Shown one piece after another: positions 10,610-45,075 of a DNA stretch of 64,000 nt. The position numbers were made by a program, and so were the translations under genes. Origin of the DNA: Tubulanus polymorphus (taxonomy: Eukaryota; Animalia; Nemertea); contig NC_134028.1 of NCBI RefSeq assembly GCF_964204645.1, positions 14,205,653 to 14,269,652 of the forward strand, given 5' to 3'. The stretch's first letter is position 1, and each line of letters starts with the position of its first letter. Below the pieces are notes generated by a model that saw nothing but the letters and a program-made list of their open reading frames with translations, was not told the origin of the DNA and ran no database searches.

Positions 10610-10660
10610 CAATTCTACATTATAATTATTGAATTGAGTTAAATGATTTAAATATCTAAG

Positions 10661-11387: not shown

Positions 11388-11425
11388 AACAGCATCTTTT
11401 AATTTCATATATTTTGACTATAAAA

Positions 11426-11728: not shown

Positions 11729-11755
11729 GAAATCGACTTAAAAAATATTAAATAT

Positions 11756-14335: not shown

Positions 14336-15194
14336 ATGGCTACACAAACAGCAATTACTGCCTTTACACAAGGCAATGCGGATTCCTCGTTAAAAGACAC
14401 AGTGATTCCCGAAACAGTCATAACCGAAAATGTATTTAGCGATTCTTTCGCGATGGACAATACTTCTAGTTCGAATAGGAGTAATAAACGTCCGAGACAA
14501 ACCTCATCAACTAGTCAAACTGACTCGGATCTACTAACAAAAGATTACTTACATGCATATATGGAAGAGTTTAAATCTAGCTTACAAGAATCATTTAGAG
14601 AAATGTTAACGAGTGAACTGGCGCAAATGCAAAGTAAACTCATTGATATGGAAAAAAACTGTTCAGATATATGATTCAAAATGCAAAAAACTCGAAGAAG
14701 AAAATGTAGCCATGAAGGAAGACATCTTAGAACTTAAACGGAATACTGTGGCTAATAATCAGTACTCGCGTCGCCATAATCTTCGGATTTATGGTTCTTC
14801 TCTCCCAAACGTTGCAGAGGGTGAAAACTGTAGCAAAATCGTAGTGGATAAAGTCTTTTCTAAATTAAAGATACCAAAGGAAATGAAAGTTACGCAAGAT
14901 GATATTGAAGTAGCCCATCGCCTTTTCAATAGTAAATCCAATAAAGACAAACCACCAGGTATAATCGTTCGCTTCAAATACAGAGACACTAGAGATCGTG
15001 TTTTAGCTAACCGTATACATTTGAAAGGGAAGAAAATCGTGATTCAAGAGGACCTAGCTCCTGAAATCTCAAGACTTCGTGATACTGCCTCTAAAAGTGG
15101 TAAATATGAAACTGTATTCGTATCTAATGGAAAAGTATTTGGAGTCAAGAATGGTCAGAAATCCAGACTAAAGCTGTTTGAAAACTTTACATAA
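14336..15194 (+). pseudogene. LINE ORF1 (coiled coil plus RRM-like domain), frameshifted
   Basis: NQYSRRHNLRIYG, DIEVAHRL, IIVRFK and IQEDL motifs typical of L1/L2/CR1-group ORF1. Confidence 0.85.
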
Positions 15195-15215
15195 TATAAC
15201 TTTGAATTGTCACGC

Positions 15216-15390
15216 TATGTATATGTGTATTTATGCGTGTGGGTGTGTGTACGTACGCACATGCGTATGTATGTATGTGTATGCATCTATGTGTATATGT
15301 GTGAATATGTATGCATGTATGTGTATGTATATATATATGTATATGTATGTGCGTGTGTATGTATGTATCTATGTATGTATATGTTGTATA
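15216..15390. repeat. TG/TA-rich microsatellite-like tract in the LINE inter-ORF region
   Basis: Alternating purine-pyrimidine tract (TATG, TGTG units). Confidence 0.9.
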
Positions 15391-15764
15391 TCACTAATAT
15401 TGTAATAATTCAACTGCAAATAGTCTTTTTTCAAATAGATTTTTGCGATTTTCCTTTTTGATAAAGCATATAGTGCGCCTTCATTCGAGGAAAGCTTTAA
15501 CGGAAACAAATCTTCCACAAAAAGGAATCAATTACTCAGTATATATTATTAGCTAAGTTAGCTATTGTTGTCTCGGAGACACTCTGGTACTATTATGCTG
15601 CTAGTAGTTGACACCGTGTCAACGTTTCACAAAACACTTACTACAAGTGTTTATTGTTTATTTTTCATCTAATCAATCAATTTTTCGTTCATATTTATCA
15701 TCCTGTATCCATTTACAATATAATTTTTCTATATATATACATATATTTTTTTTTCTCTTGTATT

Positions 15765-18700
15765 ATGTGTCTTGGTAGTGCCGATTTTTTAAAAAAATTT
15801 CGAGCGAATGATCAAGATTTATACCTGCATAGTATAATAGATGATCAATTGTCATTTGATAATGAACGATGTCCCTATGTTGAACTTAATGAAATTGGTA
15901 GCAAATTTAAGATTAATCCATCAAACTTAAATGTCCTACAAATCAATATTCATAGTCTTACGTGTAAATTACAATAACTGAAAGTAATTATCGATAATTT
16001 AGCGAAGCAAATTATAATTCTAGATATCATCATGATCTGTGAAACCTTCATAAATGACAAAAATGCTTTATTATGTAAAATCCCTGGATATCAACTTGTT
16101 GAAAACCATAGGCTCAATACTACTGGTGGGGGTGTTGCTATATATATTAATAATAATATAAATTTTATAAATAGACCTGACCTTGATATTTTTCAGGAAG
16201 GTAAATTTGAATCATGTTTTGTCGAATTGAATTTGAATCGTAATCTAAGTAAGAAAATAATTGTTGGAGAAATTTATCGAGTTCCAGGCAATAGTGAAAT
16301 TGATTTCCTAGACAATTATGAAAACCTAATCTCGAAACTAAATGAAGAAAAATCTGAAGTAATTCTTGGAATGGACCAAAATTTAGATTACATTAAGATA
16401 AATACACATAAAAATACCTCAAAATTTCTAGATATGAACCTGGCAAATAACCTATGTCCAACAATACTGCGGCCAACAAGAGTTACGCACACAACTGCAA
16501 CGCTTATCGATAATGTTTATTAATCTCAGAGGTTGGAAACTAAACACAGGAGTGCTATTATATTGACTCATATATCAGATCACTTACCTTGCTTTGTCAC
16601 TATAGAGTGTAAAAAATCACAATCATCAAAGGAAGAATATTTTTCAAGAAATTTGAATAATAGTAATATTGAACGGATGAATAAAAAGCTTTCTGATTTA
16701 GACTGGTCTCATGTAGAAAGGCTTAATTGCAATGATTGCTATGATTTCATCACAGCTAAGAATACAGCAGTGGTAAACGACGTTTCCCCAGAATTTAAAA
16801 CTAATAGGAAAAGAAAATTAATTGAACCATGGATGACAAAATCTATTCTGAAATCTTCTACGAAAGCTGATAAAATGTTTAAAAAAGTCATGAAACTAGA
16901 TAAATCGGATGAACCATACAGAAAATACAAACTTTACCGTAACCAGCTTAATTATTTAAAAAGACACCAGAAACTGAAATTTTATACTCAGAAAATAGCT
17001 ACATACAGTAAAGATAGCGGAAAACTATGGTCTACCATTCGTGAATTAATTGGGAAATCCAATGACAAAACTTCCACCACCAATATTTTTGTTATCGATG
17101 GCAAAGAAACTAGTGACAAATTTACAATAAGTAAAGGTTTCAATACATTTTTCTCAACTATTGGTAAAAATTATGCGGAAAAAGTTCCTAAATCTAAGAA
17201 TGATTTCACCAAGTATCTTCCTAAAAAAAAATGAAAATGTTATATTTCTTTGTCCTACAAACAGTGAAGAGATATATACAATAATTAATAACTTATCACC
17301 TAAAAACAGCTGTGGCGGGGACGATAATTTAAGTAATAAGTTATTAAAACAAATTGTAATGAGCATTATTGGACCCCTCACTATTCTTTTCACTAAATCA
17401 CTCCAGGAAGGCGTATTTCCTGATAACATGAAAATAGCTAAAGTAACTCCCTTATTCAAAAATGGGAACAAAAAAAAATTAACAAATTATCGACCTATAT
17501 CATTACTCCCTGTTTTATCTGAGGTCCTTGAAAAACTTGTCAACTCACGACTCTATAGTTTCCTAACAAAATATGGTATCCTAAATCCTAGCCAATATGG
17601 CTTTAGGCCATCGCATTCTACAACGCATGCTATAACAGAATTTATAGGAAATCTAATTATAAATTTAGAAAAAAAACGGAAATCATTGGGTCTTTTTTTA
17701 TATCTATCTAAAGCTTTTGATTCTATTAGTATTGATACTCTTTTAGTAAAACTAGATCATTATGGTATTAGAGGTCATGCCTACACAGGGTTTAAAAGTT
17801 ATTTTAAAGATCGAACAATTTTTACTAAATTTAATCAAACAAGTTCGAATCAGGATGATATATCGTATGGAATACCTCAAGGTTCGGTGCTAGGCCCTCT
17901 TCTTTTCCTGATTTATGTAAATGATCTGAACAACAATTTAACCTTTACACAGGCGATTTCTTTTGCGGATGACACAAACCTGTTGATTACTAAGACATTA
18001 ATTGTCTGATCGAAGGCTTCAAAAAAGATGGTACGACTGTAATTGATTGGTTTCACTCTAATAAGTTAACTTTAAATATAGATAAAACTAAATGCATACT
18101 TTTTATGCCAAAGAAAGAAACAATACAAAAGGAGAATATCAATATCCCTTTTGGATCTGAAGCGTTAAAACTATCTGTAATTTGTAAATTTTTAGGATTA
18201 CAGATTGATGAAAACCTTACCTGGGAGCCACATGTTAAACAACTAATTAACAAATTAAATAAAAGTCTCTATCTACTAAGGAGTGTAAAGAATATTCTAC
18301 CTAGTTTGAGTAAAAAACTTATTTACAATAGTTATATACATAGCCATCTTGTGTATGCCCTTATTGTATGGGGACCTATGCTAACAGTCAAACAATCTAA
18401 CTCTATTTTCAAAATTCAAAAGAAAGCGGTTAGACTAATTAATAATTCAGCCTATAATGCACCAACAGGGCCAATATTTAAGAAATATAGTATATTGAAA
18501 TTCCAAGACCTTATAGAATTAGATCTACTGAAATTTGGATTCTGTCATCTTCATAAATTGCTTCCACAGCGAGTACTAAACCTTTTCAACATAAATGCTG
18601 AATTCCACAATTACAATACCCGTAGTCGCAATTTTACAAGAGTTCACTGTCACACGTCAAAACTTTTCCACTCCTCCTTTCTTTCGCAAGTCCCAATTGT

Positions 18701-18794
18701 CTGGCAAACCGCAAATAATAACCTACATAATGCACCTAATTTATCTTGTCTTGTATCCCGATTTAAGAAATTGACTTTCAATAGTTATTCCTGA
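15765..18794 (+). pseudogene. LINE ORF2: AP endonuclease plus reverse transcriptase, several stops/frameshifts
   Basis: APE: ICET, GGGVAIYI, LIDNVY, SDHLP. RT: NYRPISLL, QYGFR, SKAFD, GIPQGSVLGPLLFLIYVND, FADDT. C-terminal HNYNTR. Confidence 0.95.
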
Positions 18795-19324
18795 TTATAT
18801 AAATTATGTGTGGCACGATACACTCTGTCATTATTTCTTGGTTTCATACCCCAAGTATTAATTATGTGTATGCTTAAACTACATGGTAAATCACCATTAC
18901 TCCACTCAAATTAAATTATTCGTATGAATATTTACCGTTTTACTATTATGTTAATATTACTTGGTGAGTACCATTATAAGCATCTTCATGTGTTACCAAT
19001 TTTATACTTTGTTAAACAATTGTCAATATATTATCATGATTGTCAATATATCATTATATTGACATTACCATGTGTTACTATTTTGTATAACATCTATTAC
19101 TACTTATCATTCGCATTACGATGTTACTATTACTATTATCATTCTCATTATGATTGTTATTTTCAATTTATTTATATTATCATGGATGAGTCCCATCATT
19201 ATCATATGTTATATTATTGTAACTAATTCCATGATTTGTTAAATAATTACAATCATTTGTTAAACAATTATAATCAGCATAATATTATGTATTATTATTT
19301 ATTTTGTATTTTTATGATTTTGTT

Positions 19325-26940: not shown

Positions 26941-28203
26941 ATCAGAAAAATATGTACTTTATTTCATAGGTTGGTCTTTGATTGAAAACTAAAAATGGAT
27001 GATAGTTCTAAATTTGATGTTGATTCACATGACCAATCTAGTAAGTATGGCTCACTCGTCTTTTAGAATGAGAGACCTATTGCATTAATCTTTAATTCAA
27101 GTTGCTATACAACCTTTTTATACAGATATTTACCTTATCAATATAAACATGTATTTGCCATTAGCCATACAATTCAGTAAAACTTTTCCCGTCCAGATTT
27201 TGAAACATCATTTGACTCAATTTTTCCTCCTAGAAAATTGCTTTAGCTCGTTCCAATGTTCGCAGTAAAAGTGAATTGTAGCATGTATGATTCCCATCCA
27301 TCAATTTTGTCTTGTTTCGTATTTTTAGCGAAAATCTCGATGGTGGCCAGATGGTGGCCAGAAAAAGACATATTCTTGGGAAATATTTAAAGACGCATGG
27401 CAAACACACTTATTGTTCACTTTTTTCCTCTCCTTATTTTGAAATTGAAGTATTGTAATAAAATATTGATTTATTTTTGTTGATCAACGGAACTAGTTTC
27501 GTTGTTTTCTTTCTTAATTTACATTTGAATTGGATGGTCATCTTGCGTAGTAGTCAGTTTGTCATCGAAGCAATACAGTCTAACTTGTTGACGTCTCAGA
27601 TGCAGCGGGGCAGGGCGGTCATTATATTGTGGACTTATCCAAATTACACTTACACAGCCCAACGTGTTTCAGTGTGTAAACTCCGACGTACTCGGCATTA
27701 TAAGACAGCGAGGAATTGAGTTTTAGTCATCTGAGCCCTCGGCTTGATTCGACCAAAAAGACCTTAACTGACTTCACAGAATTTGATTATGAGTCAAGGA
27801 TTTTCTAAATTTCTGAATGTTTTCTCTGGTTTTAAGATCAATTCAAATTCAATCTTCAAAATATTTTATTGAAAGAAATTTTACTGAAGACAGATTTTGA
27901 TATATGATAAGGATATATCTAGGCAAATAATCACAGCAAAATCAACTGATGATCATCAAGGTGAAGTTTTCATTCATCTTCGGCTAATTTGTCTACCCCT
28001 CATGATTGAAGCATTTTGGTTACTCGCGCCAATTAGTCAGCCACAGTCGATTTTCATGCCATCTGACCTCTTTCTGTAATTAAGCAATCAAATGTAAGAA
28101 TTACTTAGGTAAGGAGCGAAATAATATATAGATATCTTAGGAGACTATTTGAAATCATGAGTTTGTTGTGAAAATCTATTACTACAGTCTCGTAGAGCAT
28201 AGA

Positions 28204-28597
28204 AGTAATAGGGAATATGTTGTTTCAGATCAAAGGTCGAACGGTCGAGTTCATTAAAAACAAAACATTAAAAGTAATTTAAAACTATAATATATTTTCA
28301 TAACCGTGTGCATTTTATATTAAAACTAAATATTTATTCTAAGATATCAATAATTTAAAAAGCATATTGTATTAAATCAATTGGTCGCTCCACTTCGCTA
28401 CCGCTCCGCTCCGCGACCAATTGATTTATTTACAATACACACATTCATATAATCAAATATATTCAAATAATAATAATATTCAACTGAAATTCACACGGTT
28501 ATGAAAATATATTATAGTTTTAAATTACTTTTAATATTTGTTATTAATGAACTCGACCATTCAACCTTTAACCTGAAACAACATATTCCCTATTACT
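28204..28597. repeat. Left terminal fold-back (394 bp) of element C
   Basis: AGTAATAGGGAATATGTTGTTTCAG...CTGAAACAACATATTCCCTATTACT. Confidence 0.95.
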
Positions 28598-28676
28598 CAT
28601 AAAATATTCATATATATGAATAAAATATAAATGAATAACTTCTAAAATCAATTTTAATAAAAAATTTGATATTAAA

Positions 28677-31600
28677 ATGGAAGCAAATAAGTACTACTGC
28701 CCAACATGTAAAATCAATATAGATAAATCCCAAAAAGCAAGACACAATAAAACTAAAACACATTTAGAGAATAAATTGAAACTAGAATATAAAGATGATA
28801 TATTAGAAACTAAATTAGATGAATTAAAGAATGAAAAAAGAATGAAGAAACATATAAATGTGATACATGATAAAAGATATTATAAAGAACATTTAAAATC
28901 TAAAAGTCATATTAGAAATATGAATAATGATATTTTAGGTGAAGATTATTTTGATAATGATAATGATAAGAAACATAAGACAATTAAAAGAATAAGAAAT
29001 AAATTAAACAATAAAAGACCATACATGGAAGATGTAAGAAATTATATTAATTCATTAGATAATAAAAAAGATATAGAGATAACCGAAGCATTCAAAAGTG
29101 ATATTGGCCCAGCAGCTATCGAGTTTAAATTTCATAAAGGAAAAACATTAGAAGAAAATAAAAAACATTTAGAAAATATGAAAGAAATAATAAAAATAAT
29201 AACTGATGTTGAATATCCTAAAATTAGTATATCTTCTAATGTAAAGTTTATAAAATCTGAAGATAAACCAATATATAATATAAATTCTCATTCACAACAT
29301 ATTATTTCAAAACAACATATAGATGATAAATTAGATAAATGTTATAATGAAGTAAAAACTAAAATAGAAGAGAAATATTTTGAAGGATCTGGTTTAATAT
29401 TTGATGAAATAATATTTATGACTTTACATGTTTATAACACAAAATTATAATAAGTTAACTAAATCAAAACCAATAGATGAAAATAATGTATCATATTATA
29501 AAGATGATAATATTAACGATCAAGTTATATCAAATTACCATTTAAAACTAATGCTGTTATAAATGTACAAAATTCTGATGATAAATGTGTTCTATGGTCA
29601 ATAATTAGTTGCTTACATCCTGCAACTTATAATATTTGTAGATTAACTCATTATAAACCATTTGAAAATAATTATAAGATAGATAAGTATCCAGTTAGAA
29701 TTAAAAATATCCCAAAAATAGAAAGAGATAATGATTTAAGAATAAATGTATTTGATTTAATCAAATAACCAAATACAAAAGGTAACAATATTAAACATTA
29801 TACATTAGAACCTTTATATCTATCAAAAGATTATGATTCAAACGATGTTATAGATATATTATATTATGAGAATCATTACATGTGGATTAAACAAATCGAT
29901 TTATTTTTTAAATCAGAAAATGATCACACTCGTAAAATATATGTAGAAAATGTTTTCATAGATTCAGTAATGAAAGTGCATTATTAAATCATAAACAATT
30001 ATGTGAAAATCATGATTATTGTAAATTAGTTTTACCAAATGAAAAGGATAAAATATTAGAATTCAAAAAATATGATTACCAAAATAAAGTACCATTTGTA
30101 ATATATGGAGATTTTGAATCATTAAATAAAGAATTAACTGATCAAAATAGAAAAGAAATATATTATAAAAGAAAGAAATTAAATTATAATGAAAATGATT
30201 TTTCAGATGAACCACCAAAAACAAATACAATTAAAAAGTTTCATCAATCAGCTGCAGCTTTCGGATTATATATCAAATCTGATTATCCAGAACTAATTGA
30301 AAGTGAATATTATCATTATAGAAATGAAAATGTTATCAATCATTTTTGTGACTTATTAATTGAATATGAAATAAGATTTAGTAAATTATTGAATACAAAT
30401 ATAGAAATTATAATGACAGAAGAAGATAAAGAAGCATTTGCGTTTGCAGATAAATGCTATTATTGTGAAAAGATATTTAATTATAAAGATAAAAAAGTAA
30501 GAGACCATGATCATTTGAATGGAAAGTTTAGAGGCGCTGCACATGAGAATTGTAACTTACAAGCTAAGAAAATTAATTTTGTACCAGTTATATTTCATAA
30601 TCTATCAGGATATGATGCATATTTATTCATCAAACAGTTATGTCATAAAATAGAAGAAATTAATAATGAAATAGAAAGATTAAATTCAAATAGATCAAAA
30701 GATAAAATACCAACTTATAAATTTAGAATGTTAGCTAAAACATCTGAGAATTATATATCATTCCAATTTGGGTGTTTAAGATTTATAGATTCATATAGAT
30801 TTTTAAATAGTTCATTAGATAACTTATCAAAATCATTAGTTGATGATGAATTAAAAATATTAAAACAACACTACCCAAATAATGATGATTTCCAATTAAT
30901 GAGATATAAAGGCGCAATTCCATATTCATTTTATAAATCACATAATGATTTTAACATAACTGAATTATTAAAAGAACAATTCTATGATGACTTAAAAAAT
31001 GAATATGTTAAAGATGAAGTATATAATAGAACATTGAATATTTGGAATCATTTCAAAATAGAAAATCATGGACAATTAGTAGATTTATATTTAAAATCAG
31101 ATGTATTATTATTAACCGATATATTCGAAAAGTTTAGAGATGTAAACCTAAAATATTTTAACATTGATCCTTGTCATTGTTATTCATCACCAGGTTTAAC
31201 ATGGGATTGTGGATTAAAATTTACAGATATAAAAATGGATTTGTTAACAAATATAGATCAATTACTATTATTTGAAAAATCTATAAGAGGAGGAGTTTCG
31301 GGTGTATTAGGTGATAGATATTTCAATGTAAATGATGAAGGATATAAGTTATTATATATAGGTGCAAATAATTTGTATGGTTGGGCAATGATGGAACCAC
31401 AACCTTATGGAGTATTTGAATTAACTGAAGTTTTACAGAATGAAAATAATGATAAATTTGATTGGAAGAAAAGAATTCTAGATATTGCAGATGATTCAGA
31501 TACTGGATACTTCTTTGTTGTAGATTTAGAATATCCTGAAGATAAAAAATTTAAATCTAGAAATCTAGCTTACTGTCCCGAACATAAAACTGTAACTCAT

Positions 31601-32693
31601 GAAGAATTATCAAATTACCAAAAAAGAATTAAACCCGAAAATCATATTCATACAGAAAAGTTAATGGTAACTCAAGAAGATAAATATAATTATGTAGTAC
31701 ATTATAGAATGTTAAAGTTTTATTTGAATCAAGGAATGATTATAAAAAAGTACATAGATATATTTCGTTCAGTCAATCTAAATGGTTAGAAAATATATAG
31801 ATTTTACCACCAAACAGAGAACTGAAGCTAAAACTGATTTCGAGAAAGATTTCTTCAAGTTAATGAATAATGCATTCTATGGTAAGACTTGTGAAAATAT
31901 TAGAAATAGAAATGATATTGAGTTAGTTAGTAATGGTAAAAGAATTAGACATTTACAATCATATCCTAAGTTCATTGGTAACAGAATATTTGATGAAAAT
32001 TTAGCTGCAGTTAAGATGAGAAGAACATCAATGAAATTTAATAAACCAATCTATGTTGGCGCTTCAGTTTTAGAATTATCAAAATTACTAATGTATGAAT
32101 TTTATTATAATAGAATTACAACCACTTTTTGGAGAAAAACATATAGAAATATTATATTTTGATACCGATTCTTACATATTAAAGATAAAAACTGATAACA
32201 TAACAGATGATTTAAAAACATTAAAACATCATTTTGATTTCAGTAACTATCCTAAAAATCATGAATTGTTTAGCAATGAAAATAAAAAAGTTCCAGGGAA
32301 GTTTAAGGATGAATTAGGTGGTGAAGAAATGATTGAATTCATTGGTATTAGATCTAAAATGTATTCATATAAAACTAAAGAACATGAAGCTAAAAAGTTA
32401 AAAGGAATAACCAAAAGTGTAGTAGAAAAGAATATTCATTTAAAAGATTACATCAATTGTATATTCAATGAAGAAGTTAGAAAACATAGGATGAGATGTT
32501 TAAGATCTGAAGATCATGAAATGTTTATTGAAGAAATTGAAAAGATAAGTCTAAACCCATTTGATGATAAAAGATATATTTTAGATGATGGAATTCATAC
32601 AGTTGCTTATGGTTGCAATTTAGATGAATACTTAAAATTTAAAAGAGAAGAAACAAGGAGAACGAGATAATGAAAAGAATTCTAACGTGTTAA
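28677..32693 (+). pseudogene. polB: Protein-primed-type family B DNA polymerase polyprotein (N-terminal zinc fingers, EndoVII-like insert), fragmented
   Basis: ExoI VIYGDFES, VIFHNLSGYD, RFIDSYRF, YLKSDVLLL; Pol motifs ANNLYGWAM, KLMNNAFYGK, YFDTDS; CYYC...VRDHDHLNGKFRGAAHENCN insert. Confidence 0.95.
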
Positions 32694-32722
32694 TCAAATT
32701 TTAATAAAAATATGTATTATAA

Positions 32723-33076
32723 ATGGAGAGTAAACAAACACACAGTGAGAACAACAAATTATTTCTAGATAGAATAAAAGATACTACAAATGTAAAATCT
32801 GTAGATTATAAATTCAAAAAGTTAACAGAATTAACAATTCATAAGAAATATCTAATTACAAATATTGATACAGTTACTAATAACTATGGAGATAAATTAG
32901 TTATACACTTAGAATATGAAGGATTAAAAGGAAATACAAATAAATTCAGAACATATTTACCAGATAGATTTCATAGATCATCAAGTGAAGACCTAGAAGA
33001 ATTATGTTCTGGAGATTTCTATTTCGTATACAAAGGTAAGAATGAAAAAGGGCACCATGAAATAGATTTCGAATAA
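32723..33076 (+). CDS. 117-aa conserved protein directly downstream of PolB (possibly OB-fold ssDNA-binding)
   Basis: KKLTEL..KYLI...NYGDKLVIHL...TYLPDRF pattern; the function is inferred only. Confidence 0.55.
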   Translation: MESKQTHSENNKLFLDRIKDTTNVKSVDYKFKKLTELTIHKKYLITNIDTVTNNYGDKLVIHLEYEGLKGNTNKFRTYLPDRFHRSSSEDLEELCSGDFYFVYKGKNEKGHHEIDFE

Positions 33077-33093
33077 GAAAATATGTAAAATAA

Positions 33094-33838
33094 ATGGCGG
33101 AATTAAAAGAATACAGAATATTTGCTTACAAATTATAAATCTCATAATTTACTAGTACAATTAGATAGAGAATTTAGGAATTGTGTAGATTCAAAATTAG
33201 TTAATATAAGTTTATGTAATTCTTTTTATAATGTATCGGATAAAACTATTGAACATAGAGTCTTTTTAATTCATGATAGAAATAAAAGTAAATGGTTTCA
33301 TCTTTATCTTAAACCAGGATTATATAATTTAGAAACATTAGCTCAAGAAATTAATAAAAGAGCTCGGTTGAAAATGGGTGCATCTGCTGGATTTGGTTTA
33401 AGACTTATTAAAAGTGATAGCTCTGATAAAATAAGAATAAAATTAGGCAATGAAGATCAACATCAATTTCTAGTTAAAAAACCTTTAGCTAACATTTTAG
33501 GAATAACCCCAGATGTAAGGATACGCAATGCTGATGCTACACCAAATATAATGCCTTTTACACACTTTTATATTTATTGCAATTTAATCGATCCTACAAA
33601 AACATTCGAAGCAACTAAAGATATAACTTGTAATTCTGGTTTACTAAACATTTTACCATTGAAGAATGTTAAAGAATTTGGAACGCAAATAAATTATAAT
33701 TTAACAGAATGTGATTTCAAACCATGCATTCCTAAATTTAATAATTTTAGATTAGAAATTAGAAATCACAATGGATACTTAATTGATTTAAATAATTTCC
33801 CTGTAATTTATGAATTAGTTATAAGATGTAGAGAGTAA
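33094..33838 (+). pseudogene. Minor capsid (penton-like single jelly-roll) protein, 5' frameshift
   Basis: NSFYNV, LKPGLYN, FYIYCNLID and LEIRNHNGYLIDLNNFPV motifs resemble Polinton minor capsid proteins. Confidence 0.75.
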
Positions 33839-33855
33839 TTTTTTTCACTATATAA

Positions 33856-34197
33856 ATGAATATAACTGTTGGGCCGAGTATATGTTTTGGGTTTGATTTT
33901 AAACATGGTAAAGAAATGAGAATTAAACTAAATGATGTAATTACTGATATAAAAAGTAAATCATTTAACAATGCATCAATGATTAATAAAGAAAATTATA
34001 ATATAGAAAAAGTAATTGATTTAATTAAATCACCTTTAGAATATTATGAATTAAATGAAGATGGAATTATTGATGATATTAAAAACATATTAACCAAAAT
34101 ATATGATAATCATAAAACTAGTAATGAAATAAATGTTGAATTAATCATAAATAAGTTAACTAAATATTTTGATGATAGTAATTTATTTGATAAATAA
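33856..34197 (+). CDS. 113-aa hypothetical protein
   Basis: Intact and conserved in D (51339-51680); TAAATG start. Confidence 0.7.
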   Translation: MNITVGPSICFGFDFKHGKEMRIKLNDVITDIKSKSFNNASMINKENYNIEKVIDLIKSPLEYYELNEDGIIDDIKNILTKIYDNHKTSNEINVELIINKLTKYFDDSNLFDK

Positions 34198-34419
34198 ATG
34201 AGTGATAATAAGTGGATAATAACTGGATTATATAATGGAGCATTACTATCAGTTGGAACTGTTGGTTATTCAATGGTATCAAAAAAAGTATTCCAAATGG
34301 GAAGTGTTAATGTTGATAGATTTGATATAAATGATATTTTAAAATTAACATTAGCAGTTACTTTATCTAATTTAACTATTGATTATTTGGAAAAACAAAA
34401 ATATATTCCTCCCATATAA
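34198..34419 (+). CDS. 73-aa hydrophobic protein
   Basis: Intact in both C and D; two hydrophobic/amphipathic segments. Confidence 0.75.
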   Translation: MSDNKWIITGLYNGALLSVGTVGYSMVSKKVFQMGSVNVDRFDINDILKLTLAVTLSNLTIDYLEKQKYIPPI

Positions 34420-34443
34420 ATGCATAATTTTTTTGCTAAATAA

Positions 34444-34838
34444 ATGGCTTCTGCAATTATAACTATTATAGGATCGGCAATTGTTAACGCTTTAGCATTT
34501 ACTGGTGGCGGTTATTTATATAAGCATATTGATAAAAATAGTTCATTAGGAGAACAAAGAAGACATAATTTAGCATTAGAGAAATATAATAAAGCAGCAG
34601 AAGAATATAGAGAAAAACGACAAAACTATATGGATTACATAAATAAAGAATTATATGATCAGAAGATTTCACATAGAGATTTTCAATCAGTCGATGATGC
34701 AATGAGTTTATATAACGCAGTAACAAATAAAGAAAAATTACATCTATACAAACCAATGAACAGAAGAAATATGAAATAATATGCATTTTAGGTGAAACTG
34801 TTATTGTTATATTTGTTGCTTATAAGTTTACTAATTAG
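34444..34838 (+). pseudogene. 140-aa protein with hydrophobic N- and C-termini, 3' deletion
   Basis: MASAIITIIGSAIVNALAFTGG; intact version at 51927-52349. Confidence 0.75.
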
Positions 34839-34858
34839 TAATTTTTTTTTCTAAATAA

Positions 34859-35293
34859 ATGGAAGATAAAGTTGATAATATTGATATTATTCCTCATGAT
34901 ATAAATAAAACTAAATTAAAAACATATTTAGAAAAACAAATATTAGAATTTGAAAGTGACTTAAAAGTTAAAAAGAAAAAATATTTAAATAGTAAAATTA
35001 TATATTATCTTACTATCAGTGGTTCGGTTACAATTTGTTCGGTAATAACATTTCTAGCAATATTCAGTCCATTAACACCTTTAGCTATATCAATTGGTGT
35101 ATTAGGATTAAGTTCAAGTGTTTTAACTGGTATAAGTTCAAAATTAAATATAAAAAGTAATAAAGAAAAAATTAAAACTAATATAAAAGAAATTAATAAA
35201 TTAAAGAATACACTAGATTATATAATAAGTTTAAATGGCCATATAACAGTTGAAGAACAAGATAAATTATTAAAAGAATTAGTTAATTATTAA
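34859..35293 (+). CDS. 144-aa two-TM protein
   Basis: Two adjacent hydrophobic helices flanked by coiled segments; conserved in D. Confidence 0.75.
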   Translation: MEDKVDNIDIIPHDINKTKLKTYLEKQILEFESDLKVKKKKYLNSKIIYYLTISGSVTICSVITFLAIFSPLTPLAISIGVLGLSSSVLTGISSKLNIKSNKEKIKTNIKEINKLKNTLDYIISLNGHITVEEQDKLLKELVNY

Positions 35294-35309
35294 TTTTTTA
35301 TTTATATAA

Positions 35310-36538
35310 ATGGTAGATAGTTTTCCAAAAGCTTTCCAATATAATAAATCAATTAAATATAATATTCCAGCAATAGATTTTAATAAAGATATTACATATA
35401 GAAATGAAGTTTTAGATTCATTAACTAATTTAGAAATTTTTGTTACTGAAACTAATAATTTTAATGCTAAGATGGAAAATATATTTCATGTATATTTAAT
35501 TAATTTTAGAAAATTGAAAGATGAAAAACAATGGATATTAAAATCTAATATGAAGTATTGGCTTTACCAGGATCAAGATATTTCAAAGAATTAGATAATA
35601 ATATTAATTTATCAAAGTTTTATAAAATTTGTAATGAATTTAATATAGATATAAGTAATTCTGATTTTAGAACAAAAATTGGAACAATAAGATCACTTCC
35701 TTGCCCTAAAAAGATTGCAGAATATTGTGCACTTCCCATACCATCTAATAGTTTTTATATCTATAATAATAAATTAGGTTATGGTAAAATAGAAACTAAG
35801 GATTTAGAAACATTAAATTTCAATAAATTACCGACATTTTATGATAATTTAAAACAAGAAAACAATAATGGTTGGGTTTATTTCATTTTAGAAAATAGTG
35901 AAGGTTTTACTAAATCAGGTATAGAAAGAATAAATCAATCTATTAGAACTTATTTGATATGTATTTTAGGATCGCAAGTTGAAACAAGATCCCCAATAAT
36001 TGGAAATTTAAATACATCATTTGATACACAGAAACAATTCAAAGTATTATTTAAAGATTCCATTCATAATGATAAAAATAGATCGATTCCAGAAAACATT
36101 ATAAGATATCAAAATTAATTAGATAAATCTCATGTAAGACTTAATTATTGTATAGGCCCTAATCTATTAATTATTTCTAATGATTTAGTATTAAAGATAG
36201 GAAATATAATTGGTTATAATAATCTAATTAAAACTGCAACAATAAATAATTCATTTGGATTGAATGATATAAATAAAAAGATTATTACTGCTCCAAAATT
36301 AATGGAAGGTGAAAAAAATAAAAAATACATTCAATCAACTGAAACTAAAACTAAGAATATTAAATTGGTTAATGATTCCAAAATAAAAGATTACAATACT
36401 ACAGAAAATATTAAAACTGATAATATTCAACATGATATAATTAAACTAAATGATGATAATAAATCCCATGAAAATACTAAATTAGCTTTAACTTGTATAG
36501 GAATTGTAATCGGAGGAATATTATATTTTAAATTTTAA
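35310..36538 (+). pseudogene. Conserved ~430-aa protein with C-terminal TM segment, internal deletion and stop
   Basis: Homologous to 52820-54160; lacks the CATTGCG segment because of a deletion at ~35561. Confidence 0.75.
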
Positions 36539-36554
36539 TTTTTTTATTATGTAA

Positions 36555-38261
36555 ATGGCAGAAGGTGGAGAAGGTTTTCCATTGGGTGGCATTGGAAATA
36601 ATAATGAAGGATTTATACCTGATAAACCACAACCTGATTTTGATGAAACAAGTTTTAATGATGGTAATGAATCAGCATATAATTCTAATTTAGGTGAAGA
36701 TGATTCTAGTGGGCCTATATTATATGATTATGATGAATTTAAAGATGATACTGAAACAAGTGAAAAATTAATAGATTATTTAAGAACACGCGATGAGATA
36801 ATAATTAAAACTAGACCAAAAAGAAAAGATTTAATTAATAGATTAGAAAGAACAGAAAACCCTGAATTGAAAAAAGAATTATTATACATAAAACATAGTG
36901 TAACAAATACAGTTATTGAAGAATTATTACCAAAAAATGTAACATATAACATTGAACCAGAAGATATTGCAATACAAATTGTAGAAGATGATCCATTCTT
37001 CATGAATAATTTAGAATTTAAAAATGATTCATGGTTTTATAAAGTTGAATTAAATAACGAAACTGTATCAATTCAATTATCTAAAATGGGACAAAAAGAT
37101 CTGTACCATCCTGAAATGCGTGCAGGATCTTCAATTGAACGTTCAAAAGGTGGTAGAGAATTTCTCAGAATTATATGGAATGCAATCGATAGAATAAATG
37201 AAGAACATATTCATAATATTGATATAAACAAATATTCACCATTTAAAAATCCAAATCCAAATCCTACTGATGTTGATCCAGAAACTGATGAAGATTTTGC
37301 AAATCGATTAGATAGATTAAGATCTTCAACGCCCGAAACATCGAGAAGAGACACTCAACCAATTGATAATGATTCAAGTCAATTACAATTAGTATTAGAA
37401 GAACAAATTGATAGATTAAGAGATTCAGAAGAAGAGATGAATAGTACTGGAATAAATCGAATACAATCTTTACTAAAAAAAGGACTTCTTAAATTAACTG
37501 ATGATGAATTGGAAGCATTTCCTGAACAATCACGTAGAGAAATTAAAGGTATACAAGAATCAGCTGATGTAAATGCTAATATTAATATGAGATTTTCTAA
37601 AATAGCCATGTTAGAAAAAGAATTAGCTATTGCAAATGAAAAATTAGAACAATTAGAATTAAATAGAGATCTTAATGTAATTTATGAAGCTTATTATGAA
37701 AGCGGAAAGTTAGCTTTAGAAAAAGAAATAGATGATTTAAAATATAATATAGAATTACAGAAAGAAGAAAGAGATACATTATTAAAATCATATGATCTTA
37801 ATCATATTAAAAAATTTAAAGTTATTTTTAAAGATTTGTTGATAAAACCAAATTCTGAAATATCATTGAAAGATAGAATAAAATTATAATTTAAGTTAGA
37901 AGGAATAACAATTCTTTCAATTCTAACAGCTGTAACTATGTTATTTACAACAATAGGTTTAGCAATATCAAATGCTTTAAAATCTACTCCTACTCCCAAT
38001 AAACCGGATAAACCCCCGAATGATAATAATTCTATACAAGATAAAGTTAAGGATGGTTTAAGAAAATTAGCAAAATATTTATGGGAACTATCTAAAAAAT
38101 CTGCTGCAGCTTTACCAGGAATTATTGCATCAATTGTTGGTTTTATATTGAAATCTGCAGGAAACATTATTAACTTTGCTGCTGAACATATTATTTTATT
38201 TTTAATTACAGTTGTAAGTGCTATTATTTTTGGGTTAGTAAACAAGATCAAAAATAAATAA
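36555..38261 (+). pseudogene. MAEGG-type coiled-coil/membrane protein (~568 aa, one internal stop)
   Basis: The 444-aa and 107-aa ORFs are in the same frame, separated by TAA; C-terminal hydrophobic helices. Confidence 0.8.
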
Positions 38262-38281
38262 TTAATTTTTTTGTTAAATAA

Positions 38282-39524
38282 ATGAGTGGGAGTTATATCA
38301 ATCCTTCTAAGAATCATAGAATATCTAATGCTATTAAAGCAGAAAGATCACATCATATAATTACTCATAACCCTTCTAACATTAATCCTGATGAAACTTT
38401 ATATGTTATAATTCCTCGATTAACACAAAATACTTTTTATGTTCCAAATAGTATTTATTTATCAGCCGATATAAAAGTAACTGGTCATGATAATAATTAT
38501 GTTGTTGATTATGTTGGAAGATATTCGATTAAAAAATTAACTATAAAGATTGGTCCAGAAACCGTTTTCTCATTAGATGATTATAATTTATTTATGCATT
38601 ATAAAGATTTATGGTTAACTAAAGAAAATAGAAATAATATGATATTTCAAGGAATCCAATCAGAAAACCATAATAAATTAAGATCAGGAGCTAATGACGC
38701 AATAGTAACTCGTACCGCAGATAATTTGATTAAAAAGATTCATGGAAGCAAATATAAAATTCCATTAGACTTTGAATTGATAAATAATAATGCGCCTTTA
38801 TATAAATACGCAATTCAAGAAGACGTTATATTCGAAATAACATTTGCTCCTGTAAATGAAATTGTATTATCTAGCGTAAGATATGAGTTATAATTTATCG
38901 AATATATGTTTAGAATATGACACAGTAACTGATTAAAATATTGCAAGTATAATTCAAACTAAATACAATCAAGGATTTTCATTATTATATGATTATATTG
39001 ATAAATTTAAAACCGTAACTATTAATGCAAATGATGAAATTATTAATGAGAATATTAACTTCCCAAGAAGATCTATTAAAGGTATATTAATATTTTTTAC
39101 CATTGCAACATATTCTAATGGTGCAATACAGGTTGATAAGTATTATAATCCTGAAATAACAAAAGTAGAAATAACTATCGAAGGAATAGCAAATAAAATA
39201 TTTTGTCAAGGAATGAGAATGATAGATCAATGGCCAGAAATTAGAAAACATTTTATGAATGAAAAAGTAAAATCATCTGAAAATTGTAATATTAATCAAA
39301 TTGATTATTATACCGGTAATAAATATGCATTATGGTTAGATTTTAGAACAACGGAGGATAATTCATTACATGGTTCTGGAAAAAAATTACAAAACACTAA
39401 AGATGGAATACAATTATTCATGACAAAGAAAAAAGGAAGCTTAAATTTCAAAATGCACGTTTATATTATATCTGATGCGCAATTAAATATTGTAAATTCT
39501 CAATTAAATAGTGTTATGTATTAA
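38282..39524 (+). pseudogene. Putative double jelly-roll major capsid protein, disrupted
   Basis: Highly conserved across B, C and D; ~410 aa; beta-rich pattern (NPSNINPDETLYVRIP, IPLDF, LEYDTV, INENINFPRRSIKGILIFF, YALWLDFR). Confidence 0.72.
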
Positions 39525-39556
39525 AATTTTAACTTTAATAAAAAATCTTATATTAA

Positions 39557-40681
39557 ATGGAAGGTGGAATATATGAAATACAAACTCCAAGTGAAATGAT
39601 AACAGATATATATTATATATTACCTTATGATGAATACATTAAGTATTTTGGAGATTACCTTAATCAATTCAAATATAGAATAAGTAAAATAAAAGATAAT
39701 ATTGAAACTAAAATAGAAGATAAGAATGATATTGAATATAAAATAGAAGATGATATTGAAACTAAAATAGAAGATAGTAATAATATTGAAACTAAAATAG
39801 AAGATGTAACAGCATCTACATCTTATAATATACCCTCTACATATGATATTGAATCAAAAAAAGATTATTATAATCCAAAATATTGTGATGTATGTAAGAA
39901 ATATATATCATATAAAAATTGGGCATCACATAAGAAATCAAAGAAACATATAGAAAAAGAAAAGAATAATAATGATAATAATATATCAGTTAGTAATATA
40001 AAAGATAATGTTAACCCAATTGAAACTAATGATACCATAGATAATATAACAGATAATGTTTACCCAATTGAAACTAATGATAATGATATAACAGATAATG
40101 AAATAATTGATGATTCTAAAAAACATTGTAACATTTGTAATTTAGATATTTCTAAAAGTAATTTTTCTAAAAATAAAAAATCTAAGGGGCACATAGAAAA
40201 TGAAAAAGAATTAATATGTGATTATTGTAATAAAGAAATTGAACCTGTTGATAAAATTACTTATTATAAATCAAAATTACATCTAATTATTGTTTATAAA
40301 AAAGTGGGTATGTTACCATTGTTAGATGAACCAAAGAAATATATCAAATATTTTAATCCTGAAACTAAACAATATCATATATTCTTTAAGTTGTCATTTG
40401 ATAAATTATTAGCTTATGCAGAAGATAATCCTGACCAAATATATAAATTAGCGTATAATGGATACCTAGATTTATTTAATTTAATAAATGATTTTGAATT
40501 TGATTTTGATGGTGATAATTCTAATGATTACTTTGAAAAATTAAGAATAAAAGCTGGATTAAGTGATGATGAACGTAGAATGAAGGATGAAATAGAATTA
40601 ATAAATATGCCAAAGACTTCTGATGAATTTGATATAAACAAAGATGATTTTATAAATGTATTAGAAACAAAATTAGAATAA
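39557..40681 (+). CDS. Multi-zinc-finger protein with IETKIED repeats
   Basis: Three CxxC...H..S..H-type motifs (some degenerate); homolog of 19655-20749. Confidence 0.8.
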   Translation: MEGGIYEIQTPSEMITDIYYILPYDEYIKYFGDYLNQFKYRISKIKDNIETKIEDKNDIEYKIEDDIETKIEDSNNIETKIEDVTASTSYNIPSTYDIESKKDYYNPKYCDVCKKYISYKNWASHKKSKKHIEKEKNNNDNNISVSNIKDNVNPIETNDTIDNITDNVYPIETNDNDITDNEIIDDSKKHCNICNLDISKSNFSKNKKSKGHIENEKELICDYCNKEIEPVDKITYYKSKLHLIIVYKKVGMLPLLDEPKKYIKYFNPETKQYHIFFKLSFDKLLAYAEDNPDQIYKLAYNGYLDLFNLINDFEFDFDGDNSNDYFEKLRIKAGLSDDERRMKDEIELINMPKTSDEFDINKDDFINVLETKLE

Positions 40682-40689
40682 TTATTATA

Positions 40690-41020
40690 AAACTATTTAT
40701 ATATCTATAAAAATATTTATATATCTATGCACTAGACGTATGAGTATGAAAGTAAGAACCCAAGAATCCTTGCCAAGAAATATAAATTATAAACATAAAT
40801 TATAAACATAAATTATAAACATAAATTATAAACATAAATTATAAACATAGTTTTAATATATAATTTATTCATCATTATATATTTCATTTAATAATTCATA
40901 TTTCTATGGACTAGACGTACGTAAGAATCCAAGATTCTTGCCAAGAAAGTAAAAAGGTAAGAATCTTACTTTCTTACTCGTACGTCTAGTACATAGAAAT
41001 ATAAATTAGTTTCTATAATA
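40690..41020. repeat. Structured convergent intergenic region (candidate bidirectional terminator)
   Basis: ATTTCTATGGACTAGACGTACG...CGTACGTCTAGTACATAGAAAT inverted repeat and (TATAAACATAAAT)n array between convergent gene blocks. Confidence 0.75.
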
Positions 41021-41037
41021 TTCCAAATTATAAATAG

Positions 41038-41649
41038 TTATTTTATAAATTTATATTCATATGGAAATTGTAGTCTCAGTAATAATTTTGAACCTTTATT
41101 ATTCTTTAATTTATTCATATATTCATCATGTAATTCAGTATGTATAATTTGATTTTCTTCCAATGATTGTTGCATAGATTTTTTATCTTTGTTATAAATT
41201 AAAACTAGAAATCTTATATTCTCCCTAAAGTCTTTAACAATTGAATTATATTTTTGATTTATAACCCATGTTGTTATCCCAAAATGTCTCCCAGAGAAAG
41301 CTAGATAACATAACTCACTTTCTCTCACTTTTGAATCATGTAGATTAGCACAATCATCTACAATGAATAATGTATTTGATCCTTTATAAGTATCAATTGC
41401 TATTTTAATACAATTATCTAAATTTTCCTTTACTGTTTTAGGATCTAATATAATAAACTTTTTCATCTCAACTATATCTCTATTATATGTTTTATTCATT
41501 TCATAAGTAGGACCGAATAATATTATATTATCAAAATGATTCTTATAAATAGTTTCTAACAAATCTAATATGAAATGTGTTTTACCACAATTGGTTACTC
41601 CAGTAACTAACATATTATGCGGTTCAAATATAAATAAATCTTTACTCAT
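41038..41649 (-). CDS. A32/FtsK-like genome packaging ATPase (intact)
   Basis: GVTNCGKT Walker A, LFIVDD Walker B, SGRH arginine motif, NQKY sensor. Confidence 0.93.
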   Translation of the reverse strand: MSKDLFIFEPHNMLVTGVTNCGKTHFILDLLETIYKNHFDNIILFGPTYEMNKTYNRDIVEMKKFIILDPKTVKENLDNCIKIAIDTYKGSNTLFIVDDCANLHDSKVRESELCYLAFSGRHFGITTWVINQKYNSIVKDFRENIRFLVLIYNKDKKSMQQSLEENQIIHTELHDEYMNKLKNNKGSKLLLRLQFPYEYKFIK

Positions 41650-42751
41650 TTATTCTTTTAATTTTACTAGATAAAATCCATTCATTAAATTTATCATCGT
41701 ATCCTTTATATTTCACCAAAGAATACTTTTTTCCTTTAAGAGTTTTCGTTTTCAATACTTTTTCTATTTTGTATTCTATTTCATCTGGATTTGGTACAAG
41801 TGATAATTCTTGTTCATAGAAATAACCTAATATTTCTTCATCTTTTATATCTTCTAATTTATAAACAAAAGGTTTAGTTAATATTATCTATTTAATCTTG
41901 AATATTTCTTCAGTAAAATTTGGGGTATAACCTTTATAAAAAGTTTTTCTATATTTAGATATTCTTACGTGTTGTCCTATTTTAAATTTAGGTTCACCGA
42001 AATCATGTGTAACAAACGCTCCATATAAATTATTCCAAACTATTTCCGAATTATCTTCTTTTCTAGCTTGTATAGGTTTCATATTTATAGAACTATGTTT
42101 AGAATTATTATAACCTTTCACTAAATCATCTAATACATCGATATATTTGTATGTTTCATTAGCAGTAAAATATTTCCACATTCTAGTTTTCAATGTTTTA
42201 TTAAATCTTTCTATAATACATGCTTTTTTATCCGAGTGTGTTGAAAAATAATCTACATCGTTATCAGATAATAGTTTTTTGAAATGTTTGTTATAAAATT
42301 CCTTACCTTCATCAAATTGTATCTTATCTGGAATAGCTTCTTTAAATATATTCTTAAAAGCATTTGTCACTTCTATGCCAGTTTTATTTTTGATTGGAAT
42401 TGACCATGCGTATCTACTGAATATGTCTATAACATTTAATATCCAGAAATATCCTTTGTTGTATTCCTCTAAGTTCTTCATGTCAATTAAATCTGCTTGC
42501 CATTGTTGATCGATATATGAAACCATAACTTTTCTTGTTTTATCCATTTTCTTGTGGATTTGATATGTTGGTTGATTTTGTAACCATGATTTCAATTCAC
42601 TATATTTTATATCACCGTGTGGGTGCCATACGGCACCATTACCATTTTCCTTATCAGATTTAATTTTACCCCATAATTCTGTAACGTTAGAATATGATAC
42701 TTCACTTTCTGGGTTATAATATAACTCTCTTAAATATTCTTCTTTTTTCAT
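41642..42751 (-). pseudogene. rve integrase with chromodomain, internal stop at 41888
   Basis: Intact DDE core (WQADL, QFDEGKEF, IERFNKT); the chromodomain lies after the stop. Confidence 0.93.
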
Positions 42752-42757
42752 CTTATT

Positions 42758-43156
42758 TTAATCCATTAATAATAATTTAGATTTAGTTTCAATGACTTTA
42801 TGATTTGACTTATTTTCTGGTATGATAGGTTTACTGTCTGTATACGGATAACTAAGTTTCCGATTGTTATTGGAATCATCTTTATCATCAGATTTGAATT
42901 TTGATTTATATATTACACCGGATAATATAATAATTGTGATTAACCCAATTGTAATATATAAGTAATTATTTCTTCCACTATTAGAAGAATTAGATGGATT
43001 ACTATTTGAATCAATATCAGATAAAGTCGGTGATTCATTTATATCAGTTAATTTCTTTTTCTTAGCTTTTTTTAATTCTGAAGATCTTTTACCCAATTCT
43101 CTTGTCCATTTAATTTGTTTTTCAGATCTAGCCTTTTTCTTAACATCATCACTCAT
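42758..43156 (-). CDS. 132-aa basic single-TM protein
   Basis: Lys-rich N-terminus and YLYITIGLITIIILSGVIY TM segment; conserved in B and D. Confidence 0.75.
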   Translation of the reverse strand: MSDDVKKKARSEKQIKWTRELGKRSSELKKAKKKKLTDINESPTLSDIDSNSNPSNSSNSGRNNYLYITIGLITIIILSGVIYKSKFKSDDKDDSNNNRKLSYPYTDSKPIIPENKSNHKVIETKSKLLLMD

Positions 43157-43159
43157 TTA

Positions 43160-43757
43160 TTTTAGTTAATTTTTGTTCTGATTCATTTTCTGTTTAGACG
43201 TTTGGTTGTAGTACAGCGTCATCTGTTTCGTTCTTACCTGATTTATATTCCATAGGCTTGATGTTCGAAAATGTTATGACGCCAGTAGAAATTAATGTCA
43301 AAACCGATCCTAATTGAAATGAAGCATATCCGACCCATTTTTGTAATTCAGTCATAACTAACTAGTCATTTTTCAAATCACTATATAATTTATTTTCATC
43401 ATCAATTGGTATTAACTGGTTACATAACTTAGAGTAACATTTTATAATACCATCACTTATAGAGTCGTTTATTCTAGCTAATCTAGCTTCTTCATAAATC
43501 TAAAAATATTTTATTACTTTATCGGGTTTCATAGCATCTAATTCTTGAAAAGTTATTATTTTCCCGATAAACTGATTACATTTACCACTAGCAATTAATA
43601 ATTCTAGATGGTGCTTACAATATAAATAGTATTCATAATCAATATTACAATTAATATTATTTTCAATTTTGATTGGAATATCCTTATTATCACTAATACC
43701 TAAATCATCTAATGTTTTTTCAATATCAATACTATTCTTACTCGATTTCTTTGACAT
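43160..43757 (-). pseudogene. Conserved ~200-aa hypothetical protein, internal stop
   Basis: Homologous to 6818-7425 and 60307-60887. Confidence 0.7.
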
Positions 43758-44016
43758 TTATATTAGAGAAATTAAATAAGAAAAATATTATAAGTATTAT
43801 AAAATGATACCAGTATCTTTTTAGATTAATACTAGCTTAGTTAAAGGTAAATAATTTTAGTATTAGTTATTGTTTTTTTAGTATTTTTTATTTGTGATAT
43901 AAAGTATTCTTTTTTGAAAAGAAAATATTAAAAAAACAATAACTAATACTGGCTAGTTGAAGATATGTAATTTTTAATACTTTTTATTTAAAATCTATTA
44001 TTCTTTAACCACTCAT

Positions 44017-44667
44017 TTAAGACTCAACGTATTGTTCATTATTTGGATCATTGTTCCATTGATCAATAAATTTCTTTGCCTTTGTTAACTGTTCTGAATA
44101 TAACTGTAAATCTAGTTTATTAGATTTGATTTGATTTTCTTTCTTTTCTAGAGGTCTTAAATTTTTCCAACCCCAAATAAGTTTTTTATTGTATTCATCA
44201 TTCATGTTAAATTTAGATAACACATGATCAATATGAAAGTATTCACCATAATTATCTACATTCATTTTATCGTCGAATTGATATATTATCCACGATTTTA
44301 AGAATTCATCTGTACAACCCAACAAATTAGATAGTGTTTCTGAATGTGTTTCTTTGTTGAATAATTGTGTTAATCTAGATCTTAAACATTGTTTCAATCT
44401 AAAATTAAGATCTGTTTGATATCTTTCTCTCATATATTCTGCCATATATTAATTATAATGTTCTATATTATCTTCTCAGTATTGTTTGGTATATAGTTTA
44501 AAACAAGTTTTACAGCAATATTGAAAACCATATTTGCTAATCTTACGCTTACTAAATTCTGTTAAAGCTAATTTATCTAATTCACATTTACAACACTTCT
44601 TGTAATATATATTTATAACACCAGTGTTATTTGTAATATTGATAGTTTGTGGTTGTTCTGGTTCCAT
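44017..44667 (-). pseudogene. HNH-like nuclease, internal stop
   Basis: Two in-frame fragments; HIDHVL and NLRPLEKKEN motifs. Confidence 0.75.
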
Positions 44668-44996: not shown

Positions 44997-45075
44997 TTTA
45001 ATATCAAATTTTTTATTAAAATTGATTTTAGAAGTTTTTCATTTATATTTTATTCATATATATGAATATTTTAAG

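Follow-up and report, generated by a model that had tools for sequence, protein, structure and literature searches.

Self-complementary fold-backs with an inward second copy of the terminus at the ends of a Polinton cluster in Tubulanus polymorphus

A cluster of related Polintons and their genes

In this study, we analyzed a 64,000-nt stretch of Tubulanus polymorphus DNA (the window, 25.6% GC), which self-comparison revealed to be a cluster of related elements, A, B, C and D. Judged by their sequence features, namely pPolB, an rve integrase, an A32 ATPase, TIRs and 6-bp TSDs, these elements are Polintons. Polinton A has one end in the window (fold-back 2306–2709, 404 nt), and Polinton B (4057 to ~25000) is reversed and truncated, with its second end and PolB missing, and is broken by a smaller element, X, and by a LINE. 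Polintons C (28204–45459) and D (45631–63890) are complete, and the Polintons here are 17–18 kb in size. The LINE within B (14700–18800) carries endonuclease and reverse transcriptase pieces.

A Pfam scan of the ORFs identified the PolB family (PF03175, E 7e-9), the integrase rve core (PF00665, E 1e-9) and the packaging ATPase A32 (PF04665, E 4e-11), the latter two lying on the minus strand in C at 41888–42751 and 41038–41649, respectively. The major capsid protein was represented by a weak Capsid_N match that fell below the cut-off (E 0.005), and no Pfam match to an adenovirus-like protease was obtained among the ORF pieces scanned, in which the genes are fragmented. Named relatives of the integrase and PolB were mostly animal sequences. 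In C as well as in D, the PolB ORF is frameshifted, and these are therefore not recent active copies.

The left TIR of C (28204–28790, plus strand, 587 bp) is 97% identical to the right TIR (44883–45459, minus strand), which includes the fold-back at 45076–45459 (384 nt). The left TIR of D (45631–46192) is 562 bp long, and both lengths are inside the Polinton range of 100–1500 bp. Since the left TIR of C takes in the first PolB codons, its right TIR begins another inward-reading ORF whose N-terminus has the same zinc finger (44613–44996 versus 28677–28790). Identical 6-bp TSDs flank C (28198–28203, repeated at 45460–45465) and D (45625–45630 on the left, 63891–63896 on the right). The empty site of C is represented by three contigs from two runs that join 28203 directly to the sequence after the right TSD, and 475 reads from run X5 depart at 28204 into dissimilar flanks. 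The terminus is of the AG...CT type, reading AGTAAT here versus the commoner Polinton AGTAGT (PMC8097293).

The insertions of C and D are 171 bp apart and lie inside sequence that is repeated according to the reads (28000–28203, 45460–45630 and 63891–64000); with empty-site contigs in existence, this is possibly an insertion hot spot. A 125-bp unit is repeated 4.5 times in tandem close to the right TIR of D (62022–62589), and imperfect AT-rich palindromes occupy 40892–41008 in C and 57811–58254 in D, in both cases between gene blocks that converge.

Element X (9421–13514) is inserted in the ATPase gene of B. It is a 4.1-kb near-palindrome with arms of ~1.75 kb at 97.6% identity, a centre of ~580 bases and a 6-bp TSD. 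It is non-autonomous: one arm has a 192-aa ORF that matches no Pfam family, and the other has a corresponding ORF of 159 aa. Each arm also contains 17 tandem 24-nt repeats. The end of X resembles a mosaic of the A/C/D-type and B-type fold-back centres.

The polymerase of C is predicted to retain a terminal-protein (TP) domain at the N-terminus of its frameshifted ORF (29073–29435, plus strand). The N-terminal ORF was modelled with a pLDDT of 84, and its residues 133–253 form a five-strand, two-helix domain whose topology agrees with the published PRD1-like terminal protein as it is described (10.1101/2024.03.18.585575), the comparison being one with the description. A candidate linking Ser (29388–29390) is located in a Gly-Ser-Gly loop that precedes the last strand of the domain, and this position is Ser in 45 of 47 aligned sequences. 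In addition, the five best viral models for the PolB N-terminus include adintovirus, bidnavirus-type and MELD-virus proteins. The vOTU Cys/His residues of PolB are invariant in all 78 aligned sequences; matches to OTU folds were weak (best E 0.06), and a PDB fold search with the PolB piece gave no match at E 0.001. An endonuclease VII-like (HNH) domain was located in the frameshifted PolB of D (48003–48152, plus strand), and its motif residues are likewise invariant (78/78 PolB sequences). HNH and VSR insertions are known in Polinton polymerases, their function being described as open (10.1101/2023.08.22.554363).

Structure, covariation and strand polarity of the terminal fold-backs

A motif search of the window confirmed the first-pass annotation of this DNA in that all six Polinton ends open with AGTAATAGGG and close with CCCTATTACT, and that the identical TSDs of C and D lie outside the outer copies of the terminus. 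Together with the X5 reads and the empty-site contigs, this marks the outer copies as the genuine element ends. The further claim that every Polinton end is built in this way stands for the four gene-bearing elements and fails for X. The terminal motif occurs seven times per orientation rather than six, with the seventh pair (9421 and 13514) bounding X, at whose ends the outer arm is present and the inner arm is absent. The last 25 nt of the X 3' strand are predicted to be mostly unpaired (three are paired), and X has no self-priming hairpin, the whole element being instead one large fold-back. As X integrated with a TSD, the inner arm is evidently not needed for integration, on the evidence of this one case. 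In this same single case, X could rebuild a duplex end via its own short-range panhandle, as would be expected if a duplex origin were needed.

The six ends are strong fold-backs of 194–410 nt (z about −21) in which the terminus is repeated on the inner side, with perfect outermost stems of 24, 25, 25, 25, 26 and 12 bp. In the five long ends, which include the two of D (45631–46040 and 63481–63890, each 410 nt), the gapped arms are ~110 bp with 99–103 Watson-Crick pairs, and in the surviving end of B (4057–4250, 194 nt) they are 90 bp with 84 such pairs. The left fold-back of C (28204–28597, 394 nt) has its outer arm at ~28204–28314 and its inner arm at ~28487–28597; its DNA fold was predicted at −111.4 kcal/mol (z −21.2), with none of 100 shuffles as good, and for end B (z −21.6) none of 200 shuffles was as good. 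The 3' strand of end B is predicted to pair throughout save for one bulge and a 12-nt loop. It had been proposed from the letters that the 3' end snaps back exactly to its last base; the fold predictions agree for all six ends, and the proposal is backed by the covariation and strand-specific G·T pairs described below. Shorter versions of the end, of ~122 nt (16 reads) and ~96 nt (9 reads), were present among the read matches listed. An assembly artefact was ruled out by the three sequence types over six ends, the persistent mismatches and the full read coverage of the end.

Two further features belong to the left end of C. A central GC-rich 15-bp stem-loop (28374–28427) is absent from end B, and the right ends of C and A have lost part of it. 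The inner junction (28552–28611) lies ~65 bases ahead of the PolB start and takes in inner nt 26–46, the inner copy of the terminus and, past that copy, 14 bases that are conserved.

Over the first 25 nt, the two arms of any one end differ at no more than one position (0–1), whereas between the element types C, B and A/D there are 5–10 differences and between the close relatives A and D there are 1–3. Within this stretch, nt 11–25 differ by up to 44% among elements and yet match between the arms of each end; in C this outer-arm segment (28214–28228) is mirrored exactly at 28573–28587 of the inner arm. In the five long ends, changes on both sides were identified at eight of 110 pairs, compared to 0–1 in controls with slid partners, and the covariation score was reached by none of 500 shuffles; because these ends come from only three elements, the covariation represents about two or three events. 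In addition, end B has only its first 46 nt in common with the other ends, and its different centre is again self-complementary. Since other parts of the stem tolerate single mismatches, copying from arm to arm is a simpler cause of the perfect match at nt 11–25 than selection for pairing. The covariation thus demonstrates inter-arm copying and is no proof of a benefit.

The segment next to the variable one behaves differently. Outer nt 26–46 (28229–28249 in C) hold persistent mismatches at nt 26, 28, 35 and 39, those at nt 28 and 35 being present in all six ends and those at nt 26 and 39 in four. In C the partners are 28229/28572, 28231/28570, 28238/28563 and 28242/28559, which read as G·T on the minus (3'-terminal) strand and as A·C on the plus strand. 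Among the distinct transition mismatches in the window ends, G·T falls on the 3'-terminal strand in 13 and on the 5' strand in one, and the polarity is 14 to 2 (p 0.004) when three ends from outside the window are added, counts that are limited by the events being few and non-independent. Transitions common to at least two ends fall six to none in favour of the 3' strand, besides three shared transversions; the window ends accommodate nine transversion mismatches, and D has lost one of the fixed G·T pairs. In all six ends, the 3' strand gives a better fold than its partner strand. Inner nt 26–46 are identical in all six, and the 14 bases past the inner copy differ by 0–14% among ends, versus the 44% reached at nt 11–25. 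From this polarity and the conserved inner segment, it follows that two versions of one segment stay distinct and yet pair on one strand. The same G·T pattern would result if a single-stranded 3' strand were deaminated; whether deamination or selection is its source, the polarity points to a 3' strand that is single-stranded or folded. An RNA, through G·U pairing, would fit the polarity equally.

All six ends of the four elements have one and the same orientation, with no flip/flop. In simple rolling-hairpin resolution, as in AAV, the hairpin is inverted, whereas the asymmetric resolution of the MVM left end is compatible with a single orientation. Neither a flip nor a hairpin-centred dimer joint was present among the 15 of 50 joints listed from 12,199 reads on 28000–28900, and no loose ends at 28597 were present among the six largest sets of run X5 (the smallest with 365 reads); both of these results are weak bounds.

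Fold-backs in other Polintons and folded ends in known systems

We surveyed 130 further loci with a related integrase or PolB (737,786 bases, some loci overlapping) and identified 18 non-AT fold-backs of 100–600 nt, three of which follow directly on AGTAGT (p about 2e-5, the thresholds having been set after a first look). These three, in loci L025, L027 and L044, are 211, 150 and 105 nt long (z −27.8, −13.0 and −9.0, respectively) and unrelated in sequence to the window family. All three loci encode integrase and A32, and L025 and L027 also encode pPolB. Each fold-back starts 6–8 nt inside a probable AGTAGT end and leaves 8, 6 and 7 unpaired 3' bases, respectively; because of this unpaired 3' tail, such ends cannot self-prime. 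The tails expose the AGT repeat, which at Polinton ends is described as being used in slide-back priming (PMC8097293). In the three ends, G·T mismatches are split evenly between the strands (1 to 1). No second TIR was found in the 130 loci or in 17 further stretches, leaving these outside ends without confirmation by TIR or TSD, and there was no fold-back at the candidate AGTAGT ends of L016, L042 and L124. Two other candidates were rejected: the hairpins of L120, which are 4 kb off the genes and look like separate repeats, and L115, which is coding sequence. A pattern scan of viral contigs gave two chance matches only, and a single-protein scan of the same kind of contigs gave no match. Fold-backs therefore recur in unrelated sequence without being universal, and in the set examined only the window family pairs to its last base.

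The three loci with fold-backs also contain a 2OG-Fe(II) oxygenase gene (L025, 9877–10563), a PLA2-like domain fused to the integrase (L044, 505–1767) and a PC4-like gene (L027, 14142–15152). Separately, 39 of the Polinton integrase loci (L094–L132) sit in prokaryotic genome bins, most likely as eukaryotic contamination.

The window elements share with described Polintons/Mavericks (adintoviruses, with a Beta-type/pPolB2-like PolB and an HNH insertion) the same pPolB with TP and vOTU, rve integrase and A32 ATPase, as well as TIRs of 560–590 bp, a 6-bp TSD, an AGT-type terminus and a length of 17–18 kb. Polinton TIRs are treated in the consulted parts of PMC8097293, PMC8502044 and 10.1101/2023.08.22.554363 as simple repeats that form a racket or panhandle, and neither "hairpin" nor "palindrom" occurs in that text. 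In contrast, each TIR in the window has a fold-back of its own at the start, and with it the terminus is present a second time. The first-pass annotation had suggested that this architecture was new, which held in part. Terminal palindromes and hairpin priming are already the subject of a preprint on virophages and PLVs of Halocafeteria seosinensis (10.64898/2026.07.28.741278), in which four subtypes of virophage and one of PLV have palindromes that lie within the TIRs and adjoin the TSDs; these elements mostly have replicases other than pPolB. In literature other than the founding papers and Repbase, our search turned up no account of classical pPolB Polintons with ends of this kind. The Halocafeteria palindromes thus have the same position in integrated Polisuviricotina elements, whereas the example given there is 52 nt long and they occur preferentially without pPolB, compared to 194–410 nt in TP-pPolB elements here; the relevant section of the preprint also has no test of covariation, strand bias or orientation. 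Relative to the literature searched, what is new in the window is the arm-matched variable segment at nt 11–25, the one-strand G·T pairs, the fixed orientation and the presence of long fold-backs in TP-pPolB Polintons.

The closest functional parallel is the Streptomyces telomere (Tap/Tpg), where a 3' overhang folds back on an inner copy and undergoes repair in this folded state before TP priming takes place (PMC5449611). The window ends have the same 3'-strand fold, inner copy of the tip and TP, here as sequence and fold prediction. Streptomyces telomeres differ in being bacterial, in using an internal origin with end patching, in having many short palindromes and in their unrelated proteins, making this an analogy rather than kinship. 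The terminal self-complementarity of parvovirus and AAV telomeres, with a 3' end that pairs back, is also the same as that predicted in the window. Parvoviruses, however, need nicking by Rep, and AAV ends flip/flop, whereas the window elements have no Rep match, no flip was seen and a TP domain is predicted. Lastly, casposons are also self-synthesizing, and some have palindromes inside the TIR; these elements are prokaryotic with a Cas1 integrase, and in the account given in PMC4046053 the palindromes are internal only.

Possible roles of the folded ends

The terminal fold-backs are real, structured and constrained, and it is their function that we infer. The reading that we favour, with confidence that is about evenly balanced, draws on sequence, structural models and analogy: the ends would form a 3'-strand hairpin that acts as a folded origin and as an end-repair template for protein priming, in the manner of a Streptomyces telomere. 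Strand displacement would free a 17-kb single strand whose 3' end could snap back within seconds, with no search for the other end, and the folded 3' end would then be a local duplex origin for TP-primed PolB. Use of the outer arm as template would keep the orientation. Occasional trimming followed by refilling, or else mismatch repair, on the fold would copy the inner arm onto the outer and so leave nt 11–25 matched, and at the G·T positions the two copies would differ in double-stranded DNA and still pair on the 3' strand. The outer copy would serve as the true end for polymerase and integrase, with the inner copy beside the PolB promoter. The possibility raised at first sight, of a local duplex origin for protein priming that dispenses with a panhandle, fits the covariation, the G·T pairs on the 3' strand and the predicted TP domain. 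Counting against it is the predicted stability of the 587-bp panhandle (−623 kcal/mol, versus −107 kcal/mol for the local hairpin), which makes the local hairpin thermodynamically redundant.

That difference in stability is also consistent with the ends being a by-product, which we consider unlikely: the inner arm would stem from a single snap-back duplication and be kept alike by conversion between the arms, selection would act on duplex sequence only, namely the true end on the outside and a PolB promoter at the inner junction, and the G·T pairs would be deamination damage that was fixed early. This reading is in keeping with X having moved without an inner arm, with the inner junction directly upstream of PolB being the most conserved part, with the range of centre length among copies (~96 to ~410 nt) and with the accidental annealing that the Halocafeteria preprint offers as an alternative (10.64898/2026.07.28.741278). 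However, end B kept its self-complementarity after replacement of its centre, its two further mismatches both being G·T on the same strand, and a structure of the same kind is found in the same place in the unrelated L025, L027 and L044. Useless long palindromes, moreover, are usually lost.

A role as RNA is quite improbable. Outward transcription from the inner junction would give a G·U-containing hairpin of 200–400 nt, a potential dsRNA decoy or source of small RNA, and both the G·U-type polarity and the outward-reading strand folding better as RNA by 20–38 kcal/mol at all six ends would be expected of it. Against this, the pairing is in register with the exact DNA terminus, which is needless for RNA, the flanking ORFs of both TIRs read inward, there was no Rfam match and the bias is missing from the outside ends. 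A tRNA scan gave no match, nor did a promoter scan, whose model is bacterial and unsuited to a eukaryote.

The first-pass annotation had also considered that the folded end is a primer for rolling-hairpin synthesis, which fits poorly and which we regard as very improbable. The paired 3'-OH would self-prime, and the HNH/endonuclease VII-like domain of PolB would nick the inner junction in a Rep-like way. In the AAV hairpin telomere the D sequence adjoins the terminal hairpin, and the 14 conserved bases past the inner copy are in a like position; the 3' end is predicted to be paired to its last base, the nuclease motif residues are invariant, and a model of this type has been proposed for the virophage and PLV palindromes (10.64898/2026.07.28.741278). 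Nevertheless, the single orientation and fixed mismatch polarity of all six ends, the lack of any flip or dimer joint among the read joints listed and the retention of the TP domain and vOTU Cys/His do not suit self-priming. The same is true of L025 and L027, which have a hairpin with an unpaired 3' tail and no nuclease motif, and of X, which has no such hairpin and is not centred on one. Furthermore, no HUH Rep nickase was matched in 64 ORF scans (59 window ORF entries and five from L005), PolB having the HNH domain instead. That the ~400-nt modules are MITE-like units with their own termini, two of which flank the genes as in a composite transposon, is extremely improbable, for while each module has both terminal motifs arranged as in a mini-element, there is no solo module in the window, the same element sequence lies inward of all six with TIRs running 150–190 bp past the modules, the TSDs are at the outer copies only, and the six largest sets of loose ends in run X5 include none at 28597 (a weak bound).

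To our knowledge, all accounts of Polinton replication so far are models, with a single strand, a racket and protein priming, and the origin has not been defined. A terminal hairpin with covariation and polarity would be a concrete, testable origin structure that tells protein priming apart from self-priming, provides the nuclease domains of many Polinton polymerases with a substrate and links the panhandle origins of the adenovirus type, hairpin-ended virophages and the folded telomeres of bacteria. The hairpin is a candidate for such a substrate because endonuclease VII cleaves DNA at branches and mismatches and T·G pairs are nicked by VSR; L025 and L027, which have hairpins and yet lack the endonuclease VII-like motif, count against this. 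Extending the favoured reading, folded 3' ends might be a widespread, overlooked part of the Polinton origin, a self-templating telomere like that of Streptomyces which evolved in unrelated sequences, where fixed G·T pairs mark the 3' strand and prevent use of the inner copy as an end, the folded ends perhaps being the substrate of the HNH/VSR nuclease domains; we hold this generalization to be doubtful.

As a minor observation, GC-rich stem-loops recur in or near the non-coding DNA of Polintons, several of them with a CTTCG-type tip. Besides the one in the centre of the left fold-back of C, they were identified in L069 (8137–8349 and 11458–11687), L070 (51–95) and L025 (292–365).
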